Assembly: GCA_963693055.1 (NCBI GenBank) | Contig: OY843751.1 | Span: 2,976,001-3,040,000 of the forward strand | Reading direction: 5' to 3' | DNA: 64,000 nt | From: a bacterium | GTDB taxonomy: Bacteria; Zhuqueibacterota; Zhuqueibacteria; Residuimicrobiales; Krinioviventaceae | Shown here: positions 22 to 12,251 of the stretch, one piece after another | Numbering within the stretch: position 1 is the first letter of the stretch | Layout of the letters: every line of letters starts with the position of its first letter | Notes under the pieces: generated by a model | What the model saw: the letters and a program-made list of their open reading frames with translations, nothing else | What the model was told of the DNA's origin: nothing | Database searches by the model: none | Program-made: the position numbers and the translations under genes

Positions 22-507
22 CTACTTTCGTAACCGCGATCGCGTATATTCAATTAATCCTCCAGCATCCATCACCTTCTGACGTGTTCCGGACAATGGT
101 TGTATTGCATAAGATTTACCAGTGGTTTTGTTTACGACCTGGTCATTAGCTATCTCCAGCTCATGTCCGGTTTCAGCTTCAAAATCAGGAACTGTAAAAG
201 TTTGCAAGCCAAGGTTAACTGCATTTTGCAGAAAAATTCGGGCATAGCTTTTAGCAATAACAATCAAATCATGTCCCTTTAAACAGGAAGCAGCCTGTTC
301 CCGGGAAGAACCACAACCAAAATTTTCACCTCCCACAATTATGCTTTGTGCTGTCAGCTCTCCACTATTTAATTTTGCATTGAATTGTTTATCATCCGCA
401 AAGGCATATTCCGGGGTTTCTGAAGGTAATACAGTTGCCATAAATCGTCCGGGATATATAGTATCTGTTGATATATCATTGCCTAGTTTATAAACAACTT
501 TGGACAT
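22..507 (-). CDS. Homoaconitase/3-isopropylmalate dehydratase small subunit (HacB/LeuD family)
   Basis: Motifs DISTDTIYPG, GENFGCGSSREQA, AKSYARIFLQNAVNLG; 1 nt downstream of the large-subunit stop. Confidence 0.9.
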   Translation of the reverse strand: MSKVVYKLGNDISTDTIYPGRFMATVLPSETPEYAFADDKQFNAKLNSGELTAQSIIVGGENFGCGSSREQAASCLKGHDLIVIAKSYARIFLQNAVNLGLQTFTVPDFEAETGHELEIANDQVVNKTTGKSYAIQPLSGTRQKVMDAGGLIEYTRSRLRK

Positions 508-508
508 A

Positions 509-1801
509 TTAATTCCTTTCTTGACGTGGATCAGTTATTTTGCCGGTTATTGCTGAAGCAGCAGCAGTTGCAGGTGAACACAGGTATACCTCTGCATTGG
601 GATTCCCCATTCTGCCTTTAAAATTACGATTTGTTGTTGCTAAAGCAATTTCGCCATCAGCAAGTGCACCCTGGTGAACTCCCAGGCAGCAACCACATCC
701 GGGATTCATTATCACTGCACCACTTTGTGCAAGCGTTTCAAGATAACCTTCTTCCAACGCTTTACGATATATCTTGCCTGAAGCAGGAAAAACCAGCATT
801 CTAACATCATTGGCAACTTTTTTCCCCTTTAATATCTTTGCTGCTATTTCCAAATCTTCTAATCTGCCATTTGTACAAGAACCAATTACAATCTGGTCCA
901 GTTTCACATCATTAACATTGCTGATGGGTTCAACATTATCAACTGTATGGGGACAGGCAATCTGCGGCTCAAGATTAGAGACATCTATATCCACAATCTG
1001 CTCATAAGCAGCATCTTGATCTGGTGCAACAAAATCCAATTTATCCTCTACCCCGGCTTCCTCTCGCAAATACCGTTCTGTTTCCTGATCGGCAGGTACA
1101 ATTCCAGCACTGGCGCCGGCTTCTACAGACATGTTTGAGATAGTTAATCTACCGGACACATTCATTGCCGAAATGACATTGCCATGATATTCTAAGACTT
1201 TAAATGTAGCGCCTTTGGCAGAAATTTTGCCTATAAGATATAATATAATATCTTTAGCGGCTAAAGTTTCAGGCATAATTCCATTAATATTGACTTTAAT
1301 AGTGCCCGGAACTTCCAGGTTTAATAAAGTGCCCAGGCACCATACACTTGCCATTTCTGTAGCACCTATCCCCATTGAAAAAGCACCCAATGCACCATGG
1401 CTGGTAGTATGAGAATCCGTGCCTAAAACAACATAACCAGGGCGAACATAGCCATATTCAGGTAAAATCTGATGACATATGCCCCCCACATCACCACGGA
1501 TCTCGTGAAATTTTTCAACTCCTTGCTCTTTGAGAAAATTTCTAATTTTCTTTTGATTGTTTGCAGTTTTGGAGCTTTCCGCGGGCACACGATGGTCAAA
1601 TATGATTGCAATTTTATCAGGATCCCAAACCTTTGGAGATAAATCCGTTCCTTTATAAACTTCAAAGAATTGGTTTATAACCAAAGCAGCGTTTTCATGA
1701 GACATGGCAAGATCAACAGAAGGCTCAATGATATCACCGGGTTTTACGTTTGTAACATTTGCTGCTCTGGCAAGTATTTTTTCTGCAACAGTCATTGCCA
1801 T
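509..1801 (-). CDS. Homoaconitase/3-isopropylmalate dehydratase large subunit (HacA/LeuC family)
   Basis: FDHRVP, GICHQ, GTDSHT, IGSCTNGR, PGCGCCLG Fe-S ligands, TTNRNFKGRMG; RBS GGAG upstream. Confidence 0.92.
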   Translation of the reverse strand: MAMTVAEKILARAANVTNVKPGDIIEPSVDLAMSHENAALVINQFFEVYKGTDLSPKVWDPDKIAIIFDHRVPAESSKTANNQKKIRNFLKEQGVEKFHEIRGDVGGICHQILPEYGYVRPGYVVLGTDSHTTSHGALGAFSMGIGATEMASVWCLGTLLNLEVPGTIKVNINGIMPETLAAKDIILYLIGKISAKGATFKVLEYHGNVISAMNVSGRLTISNMSVEAGASAGIVPADQETERYLREEAGVEDKLDFVAPDQDAAYEQIVDIDVSNLEPQIACPHTVDNVEPISNVNDVKLDQIVIGSCTNGRLEDLEIAAKILKGKKVANDVRMLVFPASGKIYRKALEEGYLETLAQSGAVIMNPGCGCCLGVHQGALADGEIALATTNRNFKGRMGNPNAEVYLCSPATAAASAITGKITDPRQERN

Positions 1802-1814
1802 TGTTTTTCTCCAA

Positions 1815-3008
1815 TTAAATTATACCTTCTTTTTGGAAATTATTAATTTCCTCTTTTGTATACCCTACTTGACTGAGAAGTTCATGAGTATGTTGTGATA
1901 ATCTTGGGGGAGGATTGTCAATATTTGCCGGTGTTTTACTAAATTTTGCAGTCAGATTGAACAGCTTTAACTCACCCAACTCCTGATCTTGTACTGACGC
2001 CAATGTTTGCCGATGCTGAACTTGATCTGCAGACAATGCATCCTTTAAATCCAGAATATCTCCCGATGGTACTCCTTTAGCATTTAATAGTTCAACCCAT
2101 TCAACAGTATCTTTATCTATCAATTTAACTTCAAGCAATGGAGTAAGAATTCTTCTATTCTTTTTTCGTGTATCCCGCTCTTTAAATCTTGGATCCTCCT
2201 GTAATTCGGGAATTCCCAGCACCTCAGTTACACTGCACCATTGTTCCTGTTTATTTGCGGCAATGTTAATATATCCGTCTCTGGTTTTAAACGTACCGGA
2301 GGGTGCAGCTGTAAAATTATCATTACCTAACAAGGTAGGAGCCTGCCCTCCAATTAACAGATTTGCCGCAACCCATCCCATCAATGGCATTATAGAATCC
2401 AGCAAGGCAATGTCAATAAATTGTCCTTCGCCTGTTCTTTCCCTGTAATATAGGGCAGCCATAATAGCAAATGCCGCGTTTAAGCCTCCAACCGTATCAC
2501 ATACCGGGAAACCACACCGTAAAGGATTCAAAGTTTCATCACCATTTACAGACATCACACCACTTAGACCCTGAATGATTTGGTCATATGCGGGTTTTAA
2601 CGCATCTGGTCCGGTTTGCCCAAAACCCGAAATAGCGCAATACACAATTTTAGGATTAATGGATCGAAGTGTATCATAATCAAGCTCCAACCGTTTCATA
2701 ACACCGGGTCTGAAATTTTCAACAACAACATCTGCTGTTTTTACCAGTTTTTTGAATATCTGTTTGGCATTATCATCCTTTAAATTCAGCGTTAAAGATT
2801 TTTTATTGGCATTTTGAGCCAAAAAACTGGTACCCATTAGCTTTTGGTTCAATTCGGGCATACATCCCAATTTTCTAGCCAAATCGCCATCTTTAGGATT
2901 TTCAATCTTGATTACTTGTGCACCAAGCAATGCCAAATGTAATGTACTAAACGGACCAGATAACACATTTGTTAAATCCAGGACCCTTATACCATCCAGC
3001 AACCCCAT
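1815..3008 (-). CDS. Family III CoA-transferase (CaiB/BaiF)
   Basis: LDGIRVLDLT..LSGP, GAQVIKIE, NANKKSLTLNLK, ADVVVENFRPG, catalytic-Asp region AYDQIIQ. Confidence 0.93.
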   Translation of the reverse strand: MGLLDGIRVLDLTNVLSGPFSTLHLALLGAQVIKIENPKDGDLARKLGCMPELNQKLMGTSFLAQNANKKSLTLNLKDDNAKQIFKKLVKTADVVVENFRPGVMKRLELDYDTLRSINPKIVYCAISGFGQTGPDALKPAYDQIIQGLSGVMSVNGDETLNPLRCGFPVCDTVGGLNAAFAIMAALYYRERTGEGQFIDIALLDSIMPLMGWVAANLLIGGQAPTLLGNDNFTAAPSGTFKTRDGYINIAANKQEQWCSVTEVLGIPELQEDPRFKERDTRKKNRRILTPLLEVKLIDKDTVEWVELLNAKGVPSGDILDLKDALSADQVQHRQTLASVQDQELGELKLFNLTAKFSKTPANIDNPPPRLSQHTHELLSQVGYTKEEINNFQKEGII

Positions 3009-3928
3009 TAAAGCCCTCCTTTAAGCACTGTCGGTAAACCATTTTTATATAATCTACCAGACAACTCACGTTCAAGTATATCAGAAACATCTTTAACAAA
3101 TGCAACCAACTTTTCAAGATCGGGGAGATTGTTCATTCCCATTCTTTTGAACAGATACACCAAATCCTCGGTACACACATTTCCCGAGCTTGTCTTTGTA
3201 AAAGGACATCCACCAAGACCACCAAACGCAGTTTCAAAATGCCTGACACCTGTTTGAAAAGCAGCATAACAATTTGCTATACCAGCACCAAATGTATCAT
3301 GAAAATGACATGCACCTTTAATTTCAGAATCAAGCTCATAAATTGACGTAAAATAATCCTGTACCTGATCAGGATGAGCGTATCCGGCAGTATCAGCGAG
3401 GCTGATAAAACGAAAACCGGAATCAAGATATGATTTTACAATATTCATAACTGATTCTTTGGCAATTTCACCCTCAAAACCGCATCCAAAGGCTGATTGG
3501 ACTGAAAGTTGGACCTCTTTACCGTGATGTTTTGCCAGCTTTGCCATTAAAAGAATACGTTTTAAAGCCTCATCTGTATCCATTCCGGTATTTTTCTGAC
3601 TGTGTGTTTGACTCGCAGAAACACCCATGCAAAAGAGATCAACACCACAAGCCAAACCTCTGTCAAGACCCCGTTCATTCAAAACCAATCCACTGAAAAC
3701 AATATCCCCGGAATTGAACTCAGAATCGTGAATTAATTTAAACAATTCATCAGTATCAGCCATTTGCGGAACTTTGGCAGGATGCACAAATGAACCAAGC
3801 TGCAATGTTTTAATGCCGGCATCAATCAATTTTTCAACCCACATCATTTTTTTGTCAGTTGGTATTATTTGCTGTTCAATTTGGAGCCCGTCTCGAAGCC
3901 CAACTTCATGTATGATCACACTTTGCAT
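3008..3928 (-). CDS. HMG-CoA lyase-like DRE-TIM metallolyase (3-hydroxyacyl-CoA lyase)
   Basis: HEVGLRDGLQ, SFVHPAKVPQMAD, LADTAG, HFHDTFG metal site, GGLGGCPF, GNVCTEDL. Confidence 0.9.
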   Translation of the reverse strand: MQSVIIHEVGLRDGLQIEQQIIPTDKKMMWVEKLIDAGIKTLQLGSFVHPAKVPQMADTDELFKLIHDSEFNSGDIVFSGLVLNERGLDRGLACGVDLFCMGVSASQTHSQKNTGMDTDEALKRILLMAKLAKHHGKEVQLSVQSAFGCGFEGEIAKESVMNIVKSYLDSGFRFISLADTAGYAHPDQVQDYFTSIYELDSEIKGACHFHDTFGAGIANCYAAFQTGVRHFETAFGGLGGCPFTKTSSGNVCTEDLVYLFKRMGMNNLPDLEKLVAFVKDVSDILERELSGRLYKNGLPTVLKGGL

Positions 3929-5034
3929 GCAATTGCCTCTGCCATTTCAGATGTAGAACTATTCCCCCCCATATCATATGTTCTCACTTTGCCTTCACGA
4001 ATAACGTCTGCAACTGCTTTTTCAAGTTTATTTGCCTTATCAGTTTCACCAAGATAATCCAACATCAATTTGGCCGCTAACAGCATTGCGATTGGGTTTA
4101 CCTTGTCCATTCCTGCATATTTAGGGGCGCTTCCATGAGTAGGTTCAAAAACAGCATAATTGTCACCAATATTACCACTGGAAGCAAAACCCAAGCCACC
4201 TACAAGTTGTGCCGCAAGATCAGAAATGATATCTCCAAACATATTTTCAGCAACCAGAACACCGTAATTGTCGGGATTTTTCACAAGCCACATACACATA
4301 GCATCAATATTGGTTTCCCACAATTCAATATCCGGATATTTTTTAGCAACATCACGTGCACAACGAGTCATCAAACCACCGGTTTCGCGTAATACATTGG
4401 GTTTCTCTACCAATGTAACTGTTTTATAACCAAATTTTTGGGCATATTTAAATGCCTCATTCACAATATTGGTACATCCTGCTTTGGTTACAATGCGTGT
4501 TGATACGGCAATCTCATCTGGTGGTACATTTTCAAACTTTTTCATTTTGGGATGATTTTCCAAAAGCGCTTTAAAAACAGGATCAGGTAGCGGATGAAAT
4601 TCAACTCCGGCATAGAGACCCTGTGTGTTTTCACGGAAAACAACCAGGTCAATGCCTTCTTTATGGTTCAAAGGATTCCCAATATATGCTTTACATGGGC
4701 GTAAATTAGCTCTCAGATTAAATATTTGACGTAATTTTACTATGGGCGAAAAATATTCCAGGCCTTTACCTTGTAAATGGGGTGCCAGTTCTTTTGCAGC
4801 TTCATCTTTGGGTTTTGATGTAATAGCTCCGAAAAGAGCAGCATCTGTTTGATTTAACAAGTCTATAGTACGATCAGGCAATGGGTTTCCTTCAGTTTTC
4901 CAAAATTCCCAACCGATATCACCATAGATGTATTCTGCATCAAGTTCCAGCTTGTTCAGGACAAGTTTGGCCGCATTCATCACATCAATACCAACTCCAT
5001 CTCCTGGCAGCCATGCAATTTTATATTTAGCCAT
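3916..5034 (-). CDS. Beta-decarboxylating dehydrogenase (isocitrate/isopropylmalate family), homoisocitrate dehydrogenase-like
   Basis: LPGDGVG, FGAITS...SPIVKLRQ..LRANLRP, RENTQGLY, NMFGDIISD, FEPTHGSAP. Confidence 0.88.
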   Translation of the reverse strand: MAKYKIAWLPGDGVGIDVMNAAKLVLNKLELDAEYIYGDIGWEFWKTEGNPLPDRTIDLLNQTDAALFGAITSKPKDEAAKELAPHLQGKGLEYFSPIVKLRQIFNLRANLRPCKAYIGNPLNHKEGIDLVVFRENTQGLYAGVEFHPLPDPVFKALLENHPKMKKFENVPPDEIAVSTRIVTKAGCTNIVNEAFKYAQKFGYKTVTLVEKPNVLRETGGLMTRCARDVAKKYPDIELWETNIDAMCMWLVKNPDNYGVLVAENMFGDIISDLAAQLVGGLGFASSGNIGDNYAVFEPTHGSAPKYAGMDKVNPIAMLLAAKLMLDYLGETDKANKLEKAVADVIREGKVRTYDMGGNSSTSEMAEAIACKV

Positions 5035-5054: not shown

Positions 5055-6380
5055 TTACATGTCATCAAAAACCTGTTTTAAAATATCCAAACAACAGTCA
5101 ATATGCTCTTTTTCTACAACCAACGCAGGTGCAAAACGTATAGAATTGGGTCCGCAGCCTAAAATGATTAGCCCCTTATAAAAGGCTTTGTCAAGAATTT
5201 CATTACGTTTCTGGGCATCAGGATCCAATGATTCATCATCCTTGATGATTTCAATGCCAACCATCAATCCTTTTCCTCTTACATCGCCAATAAATGGATA
5301 CTCGGCGGCCATTTCTTCGAGTCGTCCTATAAGATATTCACCCATCGTGGCTGCATTTTCAATTAATTCAGCTTCAAGTAATTCTATGGTTTTTAAAGCA
5401 GCAGCACAGGATACAGGATTACCGCCAAAAGTAGAAGCATGCGAGCCATATGGCCAATTCATAACATCACTTTTAGCAATAATAGCTCCAAGCGGCATTC
5501 CGGATGCAATACCTTTTGCGACACAGATAATATCAGGTTCTAAACCATAGTGTTCGCTGGCAAAAAACTTGCCTGTACGTCCCATACCTGCCTGAATTTC
5601 ATCGGCAACAATGAGAAAACCATGTTTTTCAGATAGTTTTTTCAAGCTATCAACATATTCTTTAGGTGGGACAATGTATCCACCTTCACCCTGAATAGGT
5701 TCAAAAAACACAGCGGCAACTTCTTCCGGAGGGACCGTTTTTTCAAAGATCGTATTTTCCAGATATTTTACACATTCGAAATTACAGGAGCCGTATTTTT
5801 GACCAAAAATGCATCGATAACAATATGGATAAGGAATATGGGTCACATCCGGCAGCAAGGGAGAAAATCCTGCTTTTTGCACAACTTTACTTCCTGTTAG
5901 TGACAATGCACCGTAGGTACGACCATGAAAAGCGCCAGTATAGGCCAATAAACGTGTACGCTTGGTATTATAACGGGCAAGTTTAATAGCCGCTTCAACC
6001 GCTTCCGCACCGGAATTTGTAAAAAACACGCGTTTTCCTGAATTTCCGGGAGCATTTTCAACCAGTTTTTTAGCTAATTCAGATTGTACCGTATAATAAA
6101 AATCAGTTCCTGACATATGTAACAGGTTGTCAGCCTGATCTTTAATAGCTTGAACGACTTGAGGATGACAATGTCCTGTTGAACAAACAGCAATACCACT
6201 ACAAAAGTCGAGAAACTCGTTACCATCAATGTCCTCTAAAATCACACCTCTTCCCTTTTCCGCGACACACGGAAAATCACGGGTATATGATGGAGAAACG
6301 TACTGATTGTCGGTTTCAATAACTTTTTGAGCTTTTGGGCCCGGTAAATTTGTCTTGATATTTGGATATGGATATGTCAT
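5055..6380 (-). CDS. Class III PLP aminotransferase (ornithine/lysine omega-aminotransferase-like)
   Basis: LPGPKA, LDFCSGIAV, NSGAEAVEAA, FHGRT, EPIQGEGG, DEIQAGMGRTG, AKGIASG; start moved to ATG 6380 (GAAAGG RBS; avoids overlap with the ALDH gene). Confidence 0.88.
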   Translation of the reverse strand: MTYPYPNIKTNLPGPKAQKVIETDNQYVSPSYTRDFPCVAEKGRGVILEDIDGNEFLDFCSGIAVCSTGHCHPQVVQAIKDQADNLLHMSGTDFYYTVQSELAKKLVENAPGNSGKRVFFTNSGAEAVEAAIKLARYNTKRTRLLAYTGAFHGRTYGALSLTGSKVVQKAGFSPLLPDVTHIPYPYCYRCIFGQKYGSCNFECVKYLENTIFEKTVPPEEVAAVFFEPIQGEGGYIVPPKEYVDSLKKLSEKHGFLIVADEIQAGMGRTGKFFASEHYGLEPDIICVAKGIASGMPLGAIIAKSDVMNWPYGSHASTFGGNPVSCAAALKTIELLEAELIENAATMGEYLIGRLEEMAAEYPFIGDVRGKGLMVGIEIIKDDESLDPDAQKRNEILDKAFYKGLIILGCGPNSIRFAPALVVEKEHIDCCLDILKQVFDDM

Positions 6381-6393
6381 AGCAAAGCCTTTC

Positions 6394-7938
6394 TCAATCA
6401 AATTGAATACCTTGCGCAAGAACCGTCTCTTGGCTCCAGTTAATTGTGTTTGTTTGTCTTCGCATATAGCCTTTCCAGGCATCTGATCCGCTTTCACGAC
6501 CTCCACCGGTCTCTTTTTCACCTCCAAAAGCGAGACCAATTTCGGCACCACTTGTTCCCAGGTTCACATTGGCAATACCACAATCGGAACCGGCATAACT
6601 GAGAAATGTTTCTGACTCTACCAGATCGTTCGTAAATATTGATGAACTGAGCCCCTGTGGTACATCATTTTGAATTGATATTGCATGTTCGATTGTACCA
6701 TCATATTTTAACAGATATAAAATTGGTGCAAATGTTTCTTCCTGAACAATATCCATTGAATTTTCAACCTCAGCAATTGCAGGTTTTACATAACATCCAC
6801 CCGGATATTCATTCTCATCCAAGGGCTCACCACCATATATCAGAGTACCGCCTTGTTCACGAATCTGTTGAATTGCTTTTTGCATCGTTTCAACGGCTAC
6901 TGTATCGACCAAAGGCCCCATTAGAATATTTTCATCCATAGGATTTCCTATAGTAATACGATTATAATAATCCAACAATTGTGTTTTAAATCTATCATAT
7001 ATTGATTCGGCAATAATTACCCTTCTGGTTGAAGTGCATCTTTGACCTGCTGTTCCAACTGCACCAAACAATACATTTTTTGCCGCAAGTTCTAAATCTG
7101 CCTTGGGAGTTACTATTATTGCGTTATTTCCACCCAATTCAAGTATCGTTTTACCCAGTCGTTCTCCAACTGTTTTAGATATATGTTTACCCAGGCGTGT
7201 TGAACCGGTATAACTGACAAGATTGATACGTTTATCATAATTTAATAGATCCCCAATTTCAGAACCTTTACCAGTTATCAGTGTCGCAATACCCTTAGGT
7301 GCATCGTTAGCTTCAAGTACTGCTTCAAGTATTTTTTGACATGCTATGGCAGTCAATGGAACAGGAGATGCTGGTTTCCATACACAAACATCACCACAAA
7401 CAAGTGCTATACTAAGGTTCCAACTCCAAACAGCAACCGGGAAATTAAATGCAGAAATGATCCCTACAACACCAAGTGGATGCCATTGTTCATACATACG
7501 ATGTTTAGGGCGTTCACTATGAGTCTGTACACCATATAACATTCGGGATTGACCACATGCATAATCACAAATGTCAATCATTTCCTGGACTTCTCCCCAA
7601 CCCTCTTGAATAGATTTACCCATCTCCAGAGTAACCAATTTACCAAGGGCGTCTTTTTTCTCGCGAAGCGCAACCCCCAATTGCCTTACAATTTCCCCTC
7701 TTTTAGGAGCTGGTACTTGTTTCCATTGTAAAAATGCATGCTGAGCAGATTTGATAACCATATCATAATCTTCTTTACTTGCCTGTTTTACCTGAGCAAT
7801 ACGTTCACCAGTTATTGGTGATAAAACATCCATAACAGTTCCATTTCCAAACCATTTTTCTCCATCAAAAACACCGTCATTAACATCTTTTAAATCCAGA
7901 GCTTTTAATACTGCGGTTATTTCATCCCGGATTTTCAT
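6394..7938 (-). CDS. ALDH7/antiquitin-type aldehyde dehydrogenase (2-aminoadipate semialdehyde / piperideine-6-carboxylate dehydrogenase-like)
   Basis: ISAFNFPVAVW, LELGGNNA, GTAGQRCT, and the family-typical tail GAEIG.AFGGEKETGGGRESGSDAWK.YMRRQT. Confidence 0.9.
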   Translation of the reverse strand: MKIRDEITAVLKALDLKDVNDGVFDGEKWFGNGTVMDVLSPITGERIAQVKQASKEDYDMVIKSAQHAFLQWKQVPAPKRGEIVRQLGVALREKKDALGKLVTLEMGKSIQEGWGEVQEMIDICDYACGQSRMLYGVQTHSERPKHRMYEQWHPLGVVGIISAFNFPVAVWSWNLSIALVCGDVCVWKPASPVPLTAIACQKILEAVLEANDAPKGIATLITGKGSEIGDLLNYDKRINLVSYTGSTRLGKHISKTVGERLGKTILELGGNNAIIVTPKADLELAAKNVLFGAVGTAGQRCTSTRRVIIAESIYDRFKTQLLDYYNRITIGNPMDENILMGPLVDTVAVETMQKAIQQIREQGGTLIYGGEPLDENEYPGGCYVKPAIAEVENSMDIVQEETFAPILYLLKYDGTIEHAISIQNDVPQGLSSSIFTNDLVESETFLSYAGSDCGIANVNLGTSGAEIGLAFGGEKETGGGRESGSDAWKGYMRRQTNTINWSQETVLAQGIQFD

Positions 7939-7948
7939 ACCAACTCCT

Positions 7949-8737
7949 TTATTTTTGATAAATATTTCTCAAAATATGGAAATCATTGCCAAAAATTGAT
8001 TTTGCCTGTTCTTCCAATCGATTTATTAATTTCCAGCTATAAATATCATGTTTTATAAAATCTTTTGCTACCCCTACCAGACTTTCATTTGCGGTCAATA
8101 CACCAATATTACTTTTTTGATCAGAAATAATACCTTGTAACAAATAAGAATTATCTACAACCAAAGTAAATTCTCGTCCACCCTTTTCTTTTATTTTCTC
8201 TTCTTCCAAAAGATGATGATAAACCGTTCCAAAATCCAATTCAAGGTGACCATATTGTACAATTGCTATATTTTTATTTTGCTTTTCTCGCAGCTTTTCC
8301 TGTAAAAGCAATAATTCTTCTTCCCAACAGAACAAGAGAATCTCAGTTTGGCAATTGAGAATTAATTCATTGGCTTTATTAATCAAATCTTCACGGGAGT
8401 TGATATCCCAAATATAATGAGATGATACTCCTTTGGCCTCCGGAAGATGCTTTTTTAAAAGATTGATTGATGCAGTTGTATCATCCTGGAAGCGTTTTAA
8501 CAATATTTCAATATCAATTGGAATATATTTAACAGGATCGGTTTGAATGGGAGAAATAACAGATTTCTCTAACAGCTTGTTGATAACTTCATAAACTTTT
8601 GATGGGGGAATCCCTGAACGTTTAGCTAATTCATAACCTGTAATTGGATTTTTTTTAACAAGTGCAACATAAGCTTTTGATTCATATTGAGAAAACCCAA
8701 ATCTAGCAAGATTTTCCATAATAATTGATATTGGCAA
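7949..8737 (-). CDS. TrmB-family transcriptional regulator
   Basis: N-terminal wHTH FGFSQYESKAYVAL...GYELAKRSGIPPSKVYEV plus C-terminal effector domain; TTG start with AAGGAG RBS 6 nt upstream. Confidence 0.88.
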   Translation of the reverse strand: MPISIIMENLARFGFSQYESKAYVALVKKNPITGYELAKRSGIPPSKVYEVINKLLEKSVISPIQTDPVKYIPIDIEILLKRFQDDTTASINLLKKHLPEAKGVSSHYIWDINSREDLINKANELILNCQTEILLFCWEEELLLLQEKLREKQNKNIAIVQYGHLELDFGTVYHHLLEEEKIKEKGGREFTLVVDNSYLLQGIISDQKSNIGVLTANESLVGVAKDFIKHDIYSWKLINRLEEQAKSIFGNDFHILRNIYQK

Positions 8738-8751
8738 AACGAACTCCTTAT

Positions 8752-8797
8752 TAACTACCCTTGTAGTTATTATATAAAAAGTTCATAGAATTGTCAA
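8752..8797 (-). promoter_or_regulatory. Consensus sigma70 promoter with overlapping palindromic operator
   Basis: Minus strand TTGACA (8792-8797), 17 nt, TATAAT (8769-8774); perfect inverted repeat TAACTAC-cctt-GTAGTTA at 8752-8769 spanning the predicted +1. Confidence 0.8.
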
Positions 8798-8872: not shown

Positions 8873-10186
8873 TTATACATTCATTGGAACAACAAAAGGT
8901 TCGCGATAATCGCGGGTGAGCATTTCATCAGCTTCGGGATCATTAACAAATCGTTCACTGGAAGGATCAAAATCTAACTGACGTCCCAGACGATAAGAAA
9001 TATTACCCAAATGTGCAAGTCCTGATGAAAGATGAGCGGTTTCAACTGGAGCATTTAAAATGGATTTATCGTGAGCGCGTACAGCTTTAATAAAATTAGC
9101 ATAATGGTCCCCACCTTCTTTCTTACTTGGGCCTGGTTTAACATTTCTACCTTCACCCAAATAAGTCTCATAGGTATCATAACCTTTTACAAGCATAAAA
9201 CCTTTTGATCCATAAAAGAGGTTTCCTGTTCCCACGCCATCTTCCTTGTTAGTATACCAGTGACGTACCTCAACTTCCATAAATTTATTTTCATTTGGCC
9301 AAGCATATTGAGAGCTAAGAACTTCAGGAGTTTCTTTGCAATCATCCCATAAGAATTTTCCACCCATAGAAGAGATTTTGCTAGGTAATCCAACACCTAA
9401 TCCCCACATACTCATATCAGTTTCGTGAACACCCTGGTTACCAATATCGCCATTACCAAATTCCCAATGCCAGTGCCAATTATAATGGACAATATTACGT
9501 GAAAATGGACGTTCCTGAGCTGGTCCCAACCAAAGATTATAATCCAAGCCGTCTGGTACAGGTTCAAAACCTTTATCACCAATATCCGGGCGCCAACGGT
9601 AAATTGTTGCTCTTGACATATAAACATCGCCAATTAAACCATCTCTCAAATGCTGAACGGCTTCCTGCAAAGCTACAGAACTACGCAATTGTACTCCATG
9701 TTGTACAATACGATCATATTTTGCAGCGGCTTCAACCATTTTACGGCCTTCATAAATATTATGAGAACCGGGTTTTTCTACATATACATCTTTTCCTGCC
9801 TGGCAAGCCCAAATAGTAGCAAGTGAATGCCAATGGTTACAAGTTGCTATACTAACCACGTCAATGTCTTTATCTTCATAAACTTTGCGTAAATCTTGTT
9901 CTAATTGTACTTTTTTATCATATTCCTCTTTAAAATCTTTGGCTCTTTGATCAAGAACTTTTTGGTCAGGATCACAAAGGGTAACAACCTCTACTCCATC
10001 AAGGTTCATATAACCTTTGATATGGTTTTTACCTCTTCCATTTACACCCAATACAGCAACATTAATTTTATCATTTGCACCTTTTGCCGATTTGGGTAAA
10101 ATCATGGGTGCTGAAATTGCTGCAGCAGCGGTTACACCTGCAGAACTCTTCATAAAATCACGACGGCTAACCTTTTCTTTTTCCAT
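8873..10186 (-). CDS. Tat-exported Gfo/Idh/MocA oxidoreductase
   Basis: Twin-arginine signal SRRDFMK, VAVLGVNGRG, DVYVEKP, QHGVQLRS; ATG 10186 with GAGG RBS. Confidence 0.9.
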   Translation of the reverse strand: MEKEKVSRRDFMKSSAGVTAAAAISAPMILPKSAKGANDKINVAVLGVNGRGKNHIKGYMNLDGVEVVTLCDPDQKVLDQRAKDFKEEYDKKVQLEQDLRKVYEDKDIDVVSIATCNHWHSLATIWACQAGKDVYVEKPGSHNIYEGRKMVEAAAKYDRIVQHGVQLRSSVALQEAVQHLRDGLIGDVYMSRATIYRWRPDIGDKGFEPVPDGLDYNLWLGPAQERPFSRNIVHYNWHWHWEFGNGDIGNQGVHETDMSMWGLGVGLPSKISSMGGKFLWDDCKETPEVLSSQYAWPNENKFMEVEVRHWYTNKEDGVGTGNLFYGSKGFMLVKGYDTYETYLGEGRNVKPGPSKKEGGDHYANFIKAVRAHDKSILNAPVETAHLSSGLAHLGNISYRLGRQLDFDPSSERFVNDPEADEMLTRDYREPFVVPMNV

Positions 10187-10254
10187 GGTCAAAACCTCAA
10201 TTTAGTAAATATTTATGTTTAAGTACCAATTGAACCGGTTTAAATTTAAAAATT

Positions 10255-10457: not shown

Positions 10458-12251
10458 TTGTACAACAAAGACAATATTGATCGTTTACTATCCATAAATC
10501 CCACTATTCACAGTCTCCTCAAAGATGCCCAAAATCCCAGAATGGCAAGAAATTTTACCCGAATATATTTAGATGAAATGATCAGTATGCTTGACAGAAA
10601 TACACAAAAAATTCAACCCCTTGAATGGACTGTTCAAATGTCTTGTTTACAAACTTTTAAAAAAATCATCTCAGTTAGAAGTGAAAGGCTTGCAAAATTC
10701 AGTATCATTCAAGTACTTTTTTATATAGCAAAAGGGAAAATAGATAAACTTCCTGCTGATCTAAATGACGGCTTTTTTGAAGAAATGATCCACTTGTTTC
10801 AAGGTATGCTGGGCAAAAGTGGTATATATACTCAAGAAACAGTCCCTGAATTTACAAATTTGAGCGGACGAGATGCTGCCATTTCCCGATCTAATAAATT
10901 AGATAAAATGGCAAATGAAAGTAACAAATTTATAAAAAAATATCCATCAGGCCTTGATGAAATAGTAAAACAAAAACGTAAATCAAATAAGAAACGTATA
11001 TTGGATTATTTTAATGCTACAGAAGAAGATTGGAACAATCATCTCTGGCAAATGAAACATGTAATTCGAAACGTTGAACAACTTGAAGCATTAATTGATC
11101 TTTCGGAAGAAGAAATCCGTGCAGTCAATATGGCCAAAGGCGGTAATTTGCCCTTTGGAATAACCCCCTATTATGTGTCATTAATGGATAAAGAACCTGA
11201 TCGTAACCTTGATCACGCGATAAGAGCTCAGGTTATACCTCCCCTCAACTATGTAGAAAATATGCTAAAAAATCGTGATGATCGTTCCAATTGCTTTGAT
11301 TTTATGATGGAATCTGACACATCCCCTATTGAACTTATCACAAGAAGATATCCCATGATCTGCATTCTCAAGCCCTACAATACTTGTAGCCAAATTTGTG
11401 TGTATTGCCAACGAAACTGGGAAATTGATGATGTATTAGCTTCTGATGCTTTGGCAAGCAAAGAAAATATAACCAAAGCTGTTCAATGGATCAAAGAACA
11501 TCCCGCAATCAATGAAGTACTTGTTACCGGTGGCGATCCTCTGGTAATGAATAATAATAGGCTGGATTGGGTCTTAACTCAACTTGCAGAAATAGATCAT
11601 GTGGAAAGAATTCGTATAGGATCGCGTACACCTGTTGTATTGCCACAACGAATCACTAATGACCTTTTGCAAACGATCGAAAAATATCATGTCCCCGGAG
11701 TACGTGAAGTCGTTCTTGTTACACATTTCGAACATCCCTATGAAATTACTCCTGAATCCTTACAAGCTGTACAGAAATTCAAAAAGGCAGGAATTTCTGT
11801 TTACAACCAGGCTGTTTATACTCTTGAAAACAGTCGAAGATTTGAATTAGTAGCCTTGCGTAGATTACTAAGATTAATTGGAGTGGATCCATACTATACT
11901 TTTAATACAAAAGGTAAAGAAGAAACAAAGAGCTATCGTGTACCCATGGCCAGGCTTCAGCAAGAAATTAAAGAAGAAGCGAGATTGATCCCGGGTACAG
12001 TAAGAACGGATGAGCCAGTTTACAATGTACCTAAATTAGGCAAGAATTATATAAGAGCTCAACAGCATCACAGTGTATTAACTATTTTACCAAATGGTTC
12101 CCGGGTTTATGAATTTCATCCTTGGGAAAAAAATCTGGCATTAGCTGAAACATATATTGATACTGATGTTTCAATATATGATTATTTAAATATACTTGAA
12201 AAACGTGGTGAAAATATTGATGATTATAAATCTATCTGGTATTACTTTTAA
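10458..12251 (+). CDS. Long-form KamA-family radical SAM 2,3-aminomutase (glutamate-aminomutase-type residues)
   Basis: CSQICVYC radical SAM motif, RYP, TGGDPL, RIGSRTPVVLPQRIT, PYY, PKLGK putative PLP lysine; about 180-aa N-terminal extension; AGGAG RBS before TTG. Confidence 0.85.
   Translation: MYNKDNIDRLLSINPTIHSLLKDAQNPRMARNFTRIYLDEMISMLDRNTQKIQPLEWTVQMSCLQTFKKIISVRSERLAKFSIIQVLFYIAKGKIDKLPADLNDGFFEEMIHLFQGMLGKSGIYTQETVPEFTNLSGRDAAISRSNKLDKMANESNKFIKKYPSGLDEIVKQKRKSNKKRILDYFNATEEDWNNHLWQMKHVIRNVEQLEALIDLSEEEIRAVNMAKGGNLPFGITPYYVSLMDKEPDRNLDHAIRAQVIPPLNYVENMLKNRDDRSNCFDFMMESDTSPIELITRRYPMICILKPYNTCSQICVYCQRNWEIDDVLASDALASKENITKAVQWIKEHPAINEVLVTGGDPLVMNNNRLDWVLTQLAEIDHVERIRIGSRTPVVLPQRITNDLLQTIEKYHVPGVREVVLVTHFEHPYEITPESLQAVQKFKKAGISVYNQAVYTLENSRRFELVALRRLLRLIGVDPYYTFNTKGKEETKSYRVPMARLQQEIKEEARLIPGTVRTDEPVYNVPKLGKNYIRAQQHHSVLTILPNGSRVYEFHPWEKNLALAETYIDTDVSIYDYLNILEKRGENIDDYKSIWYYF

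Follow-up and report, generated by a model that had tools for sequence, protein, structure and literature searches.

The window analysed here is a 64,000-nucleotide stretch of a bacterial genome (assembly GCA_963693055.1, contig OY843751.1, positions 2,976,001 to 3,040,000), in which a family III CoA-transferase gene (1815..3008, minus strand) and a gene for a lyase of the 3-hydroxy-3-methylglutaryl-CoA (HMG-CoA) lyase fold (3008..3928, minus strand) lie side by side among dehydrogenase and LeuCD genes. We conclude that the module formed by these genes is real, conserved and undescribed. The eight-gene run to which it belongs is probably a lysine-catabolic operon, with the pair predicted to cleave homocitryl-CoA at the end of an alpha-aminoadipate route that would go backwards through the first half of fungal lysine synthesis.

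In the route that we propose, whose substrate, direction, CoA donor and stereochemistry we infer, an omega-aminotransferase and an L-piperideine-6-carboxylate (P6C) dehydrogenase would convert lysine to 2-aminoadipate, and a transamination, possibly by the same aminotransferase, would give 2-oxoadipate. The beta-decarboxylating dehydrogenase would use CO2 and NADH to turn 2-oxoadipate into homoisocitrate, which LeuCD would convert to (R)-homocitrate. The transferase would then form homocitryl-CoA, with succinyl- or acetyl-CoA as donor, and the lyase would split it into 2-oxoglutarate and acetyl-CoA. By analogy with the reductive tricarboxylic acid (TCA) cycle, the uphill carboxylation would be pulled by isomerization and cleavage and favoured by high CO2 and NADH.

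Layout of the probable operon

All eight genes lie on the minus strand, with short gaps between the upstream ones. In order of transcription they encode a TrmB-family regulator (7949..8737; PF01978), the P6C (aminoadipate-semialdehyde) dehydrogenase (P6CDH; 6394..7938; 782 bits against a cut-off of 730 for NF050084), a class III omega-aminotransferase predicted to be a lysine 6-aminotransferase (5055..6380; PRK05769, 646 against 552; its ATG start codon at 6380 was read from the sequence), a homoisocitrate-dehydrogenase-like beta-decarboxylating dehydrogenase (3916..5034), the predicted (R)-homocitryl-CoA lyase, the predicted homocitrate CoA-transferase, a LeuC/HacA-type [4Fe-4S] hydratase large subunit (509..1801; TIGR01343 hacA_fam, 529 against 386) and a LeuD/HacB-type small subunit (22..507; TIGR02087, 111.5 against 109). 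A sequence-only reading of this DNA had placed the pair between the dehydrogenase and LeuC/LeuD, which the coordinates of the open reading frames (ORFs) bear out. It had also described the two genes as overlapping their neighbours; this holds at 3008, where stop and start codons meet in TAATG, and at 3916-3928, where 13 nt are shared, but the transferase and LeuC genes are separated by a 13-nt gap (1802-1814). The unit it recognized was too small, since the aminotransferase, P6CDH and TrmB genes upstream belong to the same run.

The closest solved relative of the aminotransferase is 7vno (E 3e-129), which we take to be Pyrococcus PH1423, a relative of TK2101. A table in PMC9986279 shows TK2101 taking amino groups from L-ornithine and L-lysine and passing them to 2-oxoglutarate and 2-oxoadipate. 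Were the window aminotransferase to act like TK2101, it could catalyse the first as well as the second transamination of the route. It does not belong to the L-lysine 6-transaminase (LAT) family, as no match to TIGR03251 was found anywhere in the host genome.

Conservation of the cassette

At least 498 relatives of the transferase occur in species genomes; locus counts given here use the best 80 (71-95% identity), which come from many phyla. Among these 80 transferase (CaiB) loci, 72 contain the lyase, 59 LeuC, 57 the dehydrogenase and 56 LeuD. Since these four genes recur in most of the loci and 49 loci hold all five genes, the arrangement is not chance. The proposal that the pair occupies the synthase slot of a dehydrogenase and LeuCD module is supported. 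Where there was room on both sides (57 loci), all five core genes were present in 44, the pair stood alone in seven and the lyase was missing in three. Five of the seven lone-pair genomes were tested, and all five hold the dehydrogenase (59-69% identity) and LeuC (66-71%) elsewhere. Pairs usually found without LeuCD or LeuB-family genes had been named as the result that would speak against the proposal; the opposite was seen, with 47 of 54 roomy pairs adjoining the dehydrogenase or LeuC.

Lyase and transferase are fused in 6/80 loci. The cassette is spread over Bacteroidota, Ignavibacteria, Acidobacteriota, Chloroflexota, Gemmatimonadales, Calditrichota and others, and relatives of Geothrix and Ignavibacterium are found among the loci as metagenome-assembled genomes. 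The distribution of the transferase clade is patchy: it was found in 8 of 151 genomes of its own phylum and in 1 of 251 genomes of an Anaerolineae-centred sample, where the one carrier is the query genome. No further conserved partner emerged among the 81 of 145 flanking ORFs that were annotated.

Probable interchangeable cleavage kits

We then centred the comparison on the dehydrogenase, whose clade is present in 118 of the 151 own-phylum genomes, using 110 loci, of which 80 came from metagenomes and 30, each about 4 kb long, from genomes. A LeuA-like gene was labelled in none of these loci, many of which are short. Recurrent neighbours were PrpD-family proteins (22 loci), an HD protein (14), proteins resembling the succinyl-CoA synthetase (SCS) alpha subunit and citryl-CoA lyase (CCL) (12) and CitF (5). 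The CCL-like proteins of loci L178, L143, L170 and L189 pass the PRK06224 cut-off, the fused one of L179 lies just under the cut-off in three of four models, and both CitF proteins tested pass TIGR01584. In the 80 CaiB loci and in the host genome, PrpD, CCL, CitF and HD are all absent.

The three kits exclude one another across the 151 own-phylum genomes: the transferase was found in 8, CCL in 25 and CitF in 61, with an overlap of 0 compared with 14.7 expected if they were independent, a figure to be read as a pattern and not as a P value because related genomes are not independent. Nearly all kit carriers (89/94) also hold the dehydrogenase. Leaving out genomes G137 and G194 lowers the counts for the dehydrogenase to 116 and for CitF to 59 and changes nothing else. 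Behind one and the same TrmB-P6CDH-aminotransferase-dehydrogenase head, the window and L223 have lyase, transferase and LeuCD, and L220 and L222 have HD, two hydratases, CitDE and CitF. The P6CDH gene of L219 stands directly before a ligase, CCL, HD, a hydratase and the dehydrogenase.

Because the families that replace the pair are cleavage enzymes, the transferase and lyase most likely constitute an activation and cleavage kit equivalent to citrate lyase. The cleavage direction suggested by the sequence-only reading thus gains independent support from the citryl-CoA-lyase and citrate-lyase kits that take the place of the pair. In a FastTree phylogeny of the dehydrogenases (112 rows, unlabelled loci left out), the window enzyme groups with CCL/CitF-type relatives, apart from 52 other CaiB-type ones, a position that fits exchange of kits. 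Support for the 52-member group is weak (0.76) and support across the tree is mixed, and we claim no order of events.

The HD-domain protein, about 180 aa long and conserved (L143:8822-9367, L219, L220, L226-L233), accompanies the CCL kit and the CitDEF kit. Locus L179 (5435-8891) has the architecture of ATP-citrate lyase: an SCS-beta-like gene is followed by that for the fused SCS-alpha/citryl-CoA-lyase protein, and the dehydrogenase and two hydratases are its neighbours. Genes for AtuA (PF07287) and DUF4387 lie directly 5' of HD-LeuCD-dehydrogenase in L175 (3652-5373) and L190 (2-733) and possibly represent a fourth kit.

Dehydrogenase and hydratase

Motifs of the dehydrogenase clade are GAITS (175/180 sequences) and SPIV (176/180, the other four giving no motif match). 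At the same positions, solved isocitrate dehydrogenases read SxNV, isopropylmalate dehydrogenases GGPKW...GLL and the Thermus homoisocitrate dehydrogenase (HICDH) GAATS...GAIR. The window enzyme therefore has HICDH-type residues, the Ser of GAxTS and an Ile replacing the isocitrate dehydrogenase Asn, as in Thermus HICDH, and no GGPKW. We take these positions to be the ones that set substrate specificity. LeuC has the cysteines C309, C369 and C372, and the LeuD loop reads PGR(F/Y/H)MAT in all 60 LeuD matches at 55% identity or above. Both subunits stay below the equivalog cut-offs for the methanogen homoaconitase HacAB (HacB 110 compared with 230, HacA 505 compared with 550).

The kits that replace the pair belong to known citrate-cleaving families, so a module for citrate has to be considered. 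Here, 2-oxoglutarate from ornithine, proline or glutamate would be converted to isocitrate and then citrate, and the pair would be a new citryl-CoA transferase and lyase. Isocitrate dehydrogenases are among the top solved matches of the dehydrogenase, which is single-copy in 117 of its 118 carriers, and an ornithine-aminotransferase-like gene precedes L068. TK2101, too, accepts ornithine in addition to lysine (PMC9986279). We nevertheless consider a citrate module unlikely. The clade has SPIV without the Asn of SxNV, and the aldehyde dehydrogenase at the operon head passes the P6C model. The host has separate isocitrate dehydrogenase (IDH) and AcnA genes, and its four 2-oxoacid:ferredoxin oxidoreductases could take 2-oxoglutarate directly. 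Finally, a citrate route would have no use for PrpD or another hydratase, one of which is present in the kits acting on the si face.

Transferase and lyase

The transferase (397 aa) is assigned to family III (CaiB/Frc) by family similarity and the catalytic Asp. Its top solved relative is the human succinate-hydroxymethylglutarate CoA-transferase SUGCT (9br7, E 1e-78). D171 is invariant in all 26 aligned sequences, and an Asp-based mechanism of family III CoA-transferases is described in PMC9813914. The protein scores below every NCBIfam cut-off, including that of the succinate-glutarate CoA-transferase model NF052585 (297.5, cut-off 750).

The lyase (306 aa; PRK05692, 262.6 against a cut-off of 246) has the TIM barrel, the Arg-Asp pair, the HxH site, the GGCP cysteine and the family score of the DRE-TIM enzymes. 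Its predicted structure (predicted local distance difference test, pLDDT, 93.7) is closest in fold to 6nds (template-modelling (TM) score 0.91), with scores of about 0.9 for HMG-CoA lyases compared with 0.72-0.79 for synthases, and its identity to HMG-CoA lyases (2cw6, 1ydo, 6nds) is about 32-35%. Residues R12, D13, D179, T180, H208, H210, C241 (of GGCP) and N250 are invariant in 50/50 aligned lyases, which confirms that the R/D pair, the metal site and the cysteine noted earlier are retained throughout. The pocket is specific to the clade: Q43, Q140 and Q144 are each present in 50/50 sequences and S142 in 47/50, with Ala in the other three. These positions presumably correspond to E72, R165, Y167 and S169 of human HMG-CoA lyase. 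The signature of that enzyme (Glu72 and the R-x-Y-x-S strand of the human and B. subtilis proteins) is thus replaced by Q43 and Q-x-S-x-Q; 6nds itself deviates at this strand and has Thr at the S142 position. Loss of the acid and of the bulky Tyr would suit a substrate with a longer acidic arm.

SUGCT and HMG-CoA lyases are the top matches of the pair, and the relatives carry the database name hydroxymethylglutaryl-CoA lyase. The pair could hence be an ordinary glutarate/3-hydroxy-3-methylglutarate transferase and HMG-CoA lyase whose place among lysine genes is incidental. This is highly improbable given the tight linkage to the dehydrogenase and LeuCD, the mutual exclusion with citrate-type kits, the SucGlutTfs score (298 against 750), the change at four HMG-CoA lyase pocket positions and the host genome, in which no glutaryl-CoA dehydrogenase was identified.

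Alternatively, the substrate may be a dicarboxylic alkylmalate, with 2-oxobutyrate converted via (R)-citramalate to pyruvate and acetyl-CoA, or a leucine-chain analogue proceeding via 2-isopropylmalyl-CoA. A family III transferase with an HMG-CoA-lyase-type lyase is the reported design of Chloroflexus Sct and R-citramalyl-CoA lyase. The top fold match 6nds holds 3-methylmalate, the LeuD loop has an Arg seen in isopropylmalate isomerases, VorABC-type 2-oxoacid:ferredoxin oxidoreductase genes lie near the cassette in 8/80 loci, and sequence mapping found no basic residue in the lyase pocket. An alkylmalate route is still quite unlikely in our view. The dehydrogenase is without the isopropylmalate dehydrogenase GGPKW...GLL pattern, the operon head encodes lysine/P6C catabolism, and the host has separate LeuAB, LeuCD and CimA genes. 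Ser142 (or Ala) also replaces the Tyr that we presume to be typical of HMG-CoA lyases with methyl-bearing substrates, although 6nds has Thr there.

The VorABC-type genes were found in loci L047 (363-5016), L004, L008, L017, L020, L027, L042 and L071, four of which also contain an acetate CoA-transferase-like gene.

Lysine link and likely direction of the proposed route

Three kinds of lysine-entry gene are neighbours of the module, each in a lineage of its own: omega-aminotransferase with P6CDH (in the family of the host), PH1688-like dehydrogenases, and LAT. The PH1688-like saccharopine/lysine dehydrogenase genes stand directly upstream of the module in L038 and directly downstream in L013, and L190 has two of them; we take PH1688 to be a lysine dehydrogenase. 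In two Thermoanaerobaculia loci, L049 and L067, a LAT gene above cut-off lies some 4-5 kb upstream of the module. With these lysine neighbours, homocitrate is the best-supported substrate.

Stereochemistry offers a further comparison of the kits. DRE-TIM enzymes act on the re face, whereas citrate-synthase-fold and CitE lyases act on the si face. On that basis LeuCD and (R)-homocitrate would suffice for an HMG-CoA-lyase-type kit, and si-type kits would call for an extra dehydratase. The distribution of PrpD (0/80 CaiB loci, 22/110 dehydrogenase loci) fits this division between re- and si-type cleavage of a chiral substrate. According to PMC3556520, PrpD performs syn-elimination, and the M. jannaschii enzyme carries out both homocitrate steps while fungi and Thermus need two enzymes.

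The host genome consists of one contig and is 100% complete. Its diaminopimelate (DAP) pathway is encoded in one cluster by lysC, dapB, dapA, dapF, dapL and a lysA-like gene, of which DapA, DapF, DapL and DapB score above cut-off and lysA below. Separate LeuA, CimA-like, LeuB, LeuCD, AcnA and IDH genes are present. Alpha-aminoadipate lysine biosynthesis does not appear to be encoded, as synthases have only LeuA/CimA length and LysX is missing from the genome. No SucA-type E1 (2-oxoadipate dehydrogenase) or HglS was found in the host genome either, no glutaryl-CoA dehydrogenase was identified there and its sole acyl-CoA dehydrogenase is of butyryl type; for these reasons the host seems able to form 2-aminoadipate but to lack every known exit for 2-oxoadipate. 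Of its four 2-oxoacid:ferredoxin oxidoreductases, one could still decarboxylate 2-oxoadipate. In the 50 cassette genomes, which were chosen from full-cassette loci, LysX occurs in two, both times beside argH and once also beside argG. The DAP pathway, the missing LysX and 2-oxoadipate exit of the host, and the rarity of LysX in cassette genomes and its place beside arginine genes together suggest that catabolism is the likelier direction.

The module might instead run forward and make 2-oxoadipate and 2-aminoadipate, with lyase and transferase replacing homocitrate synthase. The enzyme family of the dehydrogenase usually runs as an oxidative decarboxylation, and no homocitrate synthase above cut-off was found in the five Anaerolineae genomes tested. 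We regard this as very unlikely, since LysX is so rare in cassette genomes, the host makes lysine through DAP and the aldehyde dehydrogenase at the operon head oxidizes the semialdehyde. Acyl-CoA lyases, moreover, presumably favour cleavage at cellular concentrations.

Several findings weigh against lysine-derived homocitrate as the substrate of the catabolic route. The aminotransferase family also accepts ornithine, the P6CDH head was found in only 3/80 CaiB loci, and the VorABC-type neighbours fit branched or short 2-oxoacids. Besides having isocitrate dehydrogenases among its solved matches, the dehydrogenase misses all HICDH cut-offs (AksF2 341 against 540, AksF 281 against 500, iso_homocit_dh 191 against 680). 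The LeuD loop of the window, PGRFMAT, does not contain the Arg found in the YLRT loop of methanogen homoaconitase (PGPYLRT) and is nearer to PGRYNLT of 1v7l. The earlier idea of a chain-shortening module in place of a synthase fits the position of the pair, and kit substitution favours cleavage, but the basic residue that it predicted for the extra carboxylate was not found: at the level of sequence mapping the lyase clade has no specific basic pocket residue, and the positions carry Gln or Ser. Lysine-entry genes (LAT or a P6CDH orthologue) occur in 33/50 cassette genomes compared with 107/151 in the phylum sample, and in 85/118 genomes with the dehydrogenase compared with 22/33 without. Genome-level co-occurrence was dropped as support, the phylum background being equally high; because there is no genome-wide enrichment, only the adjacency of lysine genes counts. 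SucA-type E1 occurs in 22/50 cassette genomes, and in one cassette genome HglS lies beside P6CDH. None of the three kits was found in 29/118 dehydrogenase genomes, most of them in families f16, f18, f20 and f23, and the AtuA-type candidate for a fourth kit was found in 0/151 own-phylum genomes, a search that had no positive control.

Comparison with known systems

The upper alpha-aminoadipate pathway of fungi, Thermus and methanogens (HacAB/LysTU/Lys4) uses the same LeuCD/HacAB-type hydratase and HICDH-like dehydrogenase and the same C7 tricarboxylate intermediates that are predicted here. It has homocitrate synthase where the window module has CoA-transferase and lyase, and it comes with LysW genes, whereas the window module is linked to lysine-degrading genes in a host that uses DAP. 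The arm of the reductive TCA cycle that cleaves citrate (citryl-CoA synthetase with citryl-CoA lyase, ATP-citrate lyase, CitDEF) shares the logic of reductive carboxylation, isomerization, CoA activation and retro-Claisen cleavage to acetyl-CoA, and its families occupy the same slot in relatives of the window module. The window substrate is predicted to be one carbon longer, however, and the window enzymes, a family III transferase and a DRE-TIM lyase, are unrelated in fold to those of the citrate-cleaving arm and would use no ATP.

The same pairing of family III transferase and HMG-CoA-lyase-type lyase is reported for the succinyl-CoA:(R)-citramalate CoA-transferase and (R)-citramalyl-CoA lyase of Chloroflexus aurantiacus. 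That pair reportedly cleaves a free tertiary hydroxy acid, with a C5 dicarboxylate as substrate; the window pair differs in its linkage to dehydrogenase, LeuCD and lysine genes. Compared with HMG-CoA lyase (2cw6, 1ydo, 6nds) and SUGCT (9br7), the window pair keeps fold and catalytic residues and differs in lyase pocket and genomic context. Known exits of 2-oxoadipate, through 2-oxoadipate dehydrogenase to glutaryl-CoA or through HglS to D-2-hydroxyglutarate, start from the same predicted metabolite after P6CDH. Neither was found in the host, and the predicted route differs from both in taking up CO2 and NADH and needing no oxygen.

A full-text literature search, with subscription journals mostly outside its coverage, found no description of the module or of homocitryl-CoA cleavage. 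If the proposed route is correct, lysine-derived 2-oxoadipate can be used without oxygen or glutaryl-CoA dehydrogenase, consuming NADH and CO2 and returning 2-oxoglutarate for transamination, through two new enzyme activities, homocitrate CoA-transferase and homocitryl-CoA lyase. The synthase step would have been swapped for three unrelated cleavage kits, and CCL/ATP-citrate-lyase-like and CitDEF genes in such genomes would not be safe evidence of citrate fermentation or a reductive TCA cycle. We lean, by a little, towards the wider view that oxygen-independent, CO2-fixing lysine degradation is widespread in uncultured bacteria, that at least three unrelated kits split homocitrate, the CaiB and HMG-CoA-lyase-type pair being ATP-free and (R)-specific, and that many 'citrate lyase' and 'citryl-CoA lyase' calls are misread. 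Both proteins are small and look soluble, and some lineages have them as a natural fusion (e.g. L009); the claim can therefore be tested by one coupled assay.

Probable operon boundaries and neighbouring genes

A sigma-70-type promoter-like site, TTGACA-17-TATAAT, lies 5' of trmB (8769..8797, minus strand) and matches 12/12 consensus positions, an assignment by consensus only; the transferase gene itself contains another site that matches 12/12, and total site counts are at chance level. The trmB gene is also the first gene of the lysine operons at loci L220, L221, L222 and L223. A terminator-like hairpin (8859-8832) closes the gene 5' of the operon and separates the two. This gene (8873-10192, minus strand) encodes a Gfo/Idh/MocA oxidoreductase with a Tat signal, which is one of more than 30 paralogues in the host genome.

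Elsewhere in the host genome, a stand-alone saccharopine/lysine-dehydrogenase-like gene (G000:C1:1683279-1684409), 50% identical to the L190 gene, is a possible second lysine entry. A DRE-TIM-like ORF (G000:C1:1779621-1780988) near IDH and AcnA has no NCBIfam match at 1e-40; from a motif, we take it to be a putative Re-citrate synthase. In Ignavibacteria and Bacteroidota (L081-L083, L085, L087, L088, L093 and L094), the partner of LAT is a GucD-like aldehyde dehydrogenase that shares 36-40% identity with P6CDH and is a candidate non-ALDH7 aminoadipate-semialdehyde dehydrogenase. Two Anaerolineae genomes (L249, L250) have lysW-lysX directly after argH, with lysYZJK in addition in L250, which suggests LysW-dependent arginine synthesis. 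Further along the window, a gene on the plus strand (10458-12251) encodes a 597-aa radical SAM protein of the KamA family that is extended by a long N-terminal stretch, passes the TIGR00238 cut-off and misses those for lysine and glutamate aminomutase; a gene of this family lies near the operon in the closest relative only (1/80 loci).

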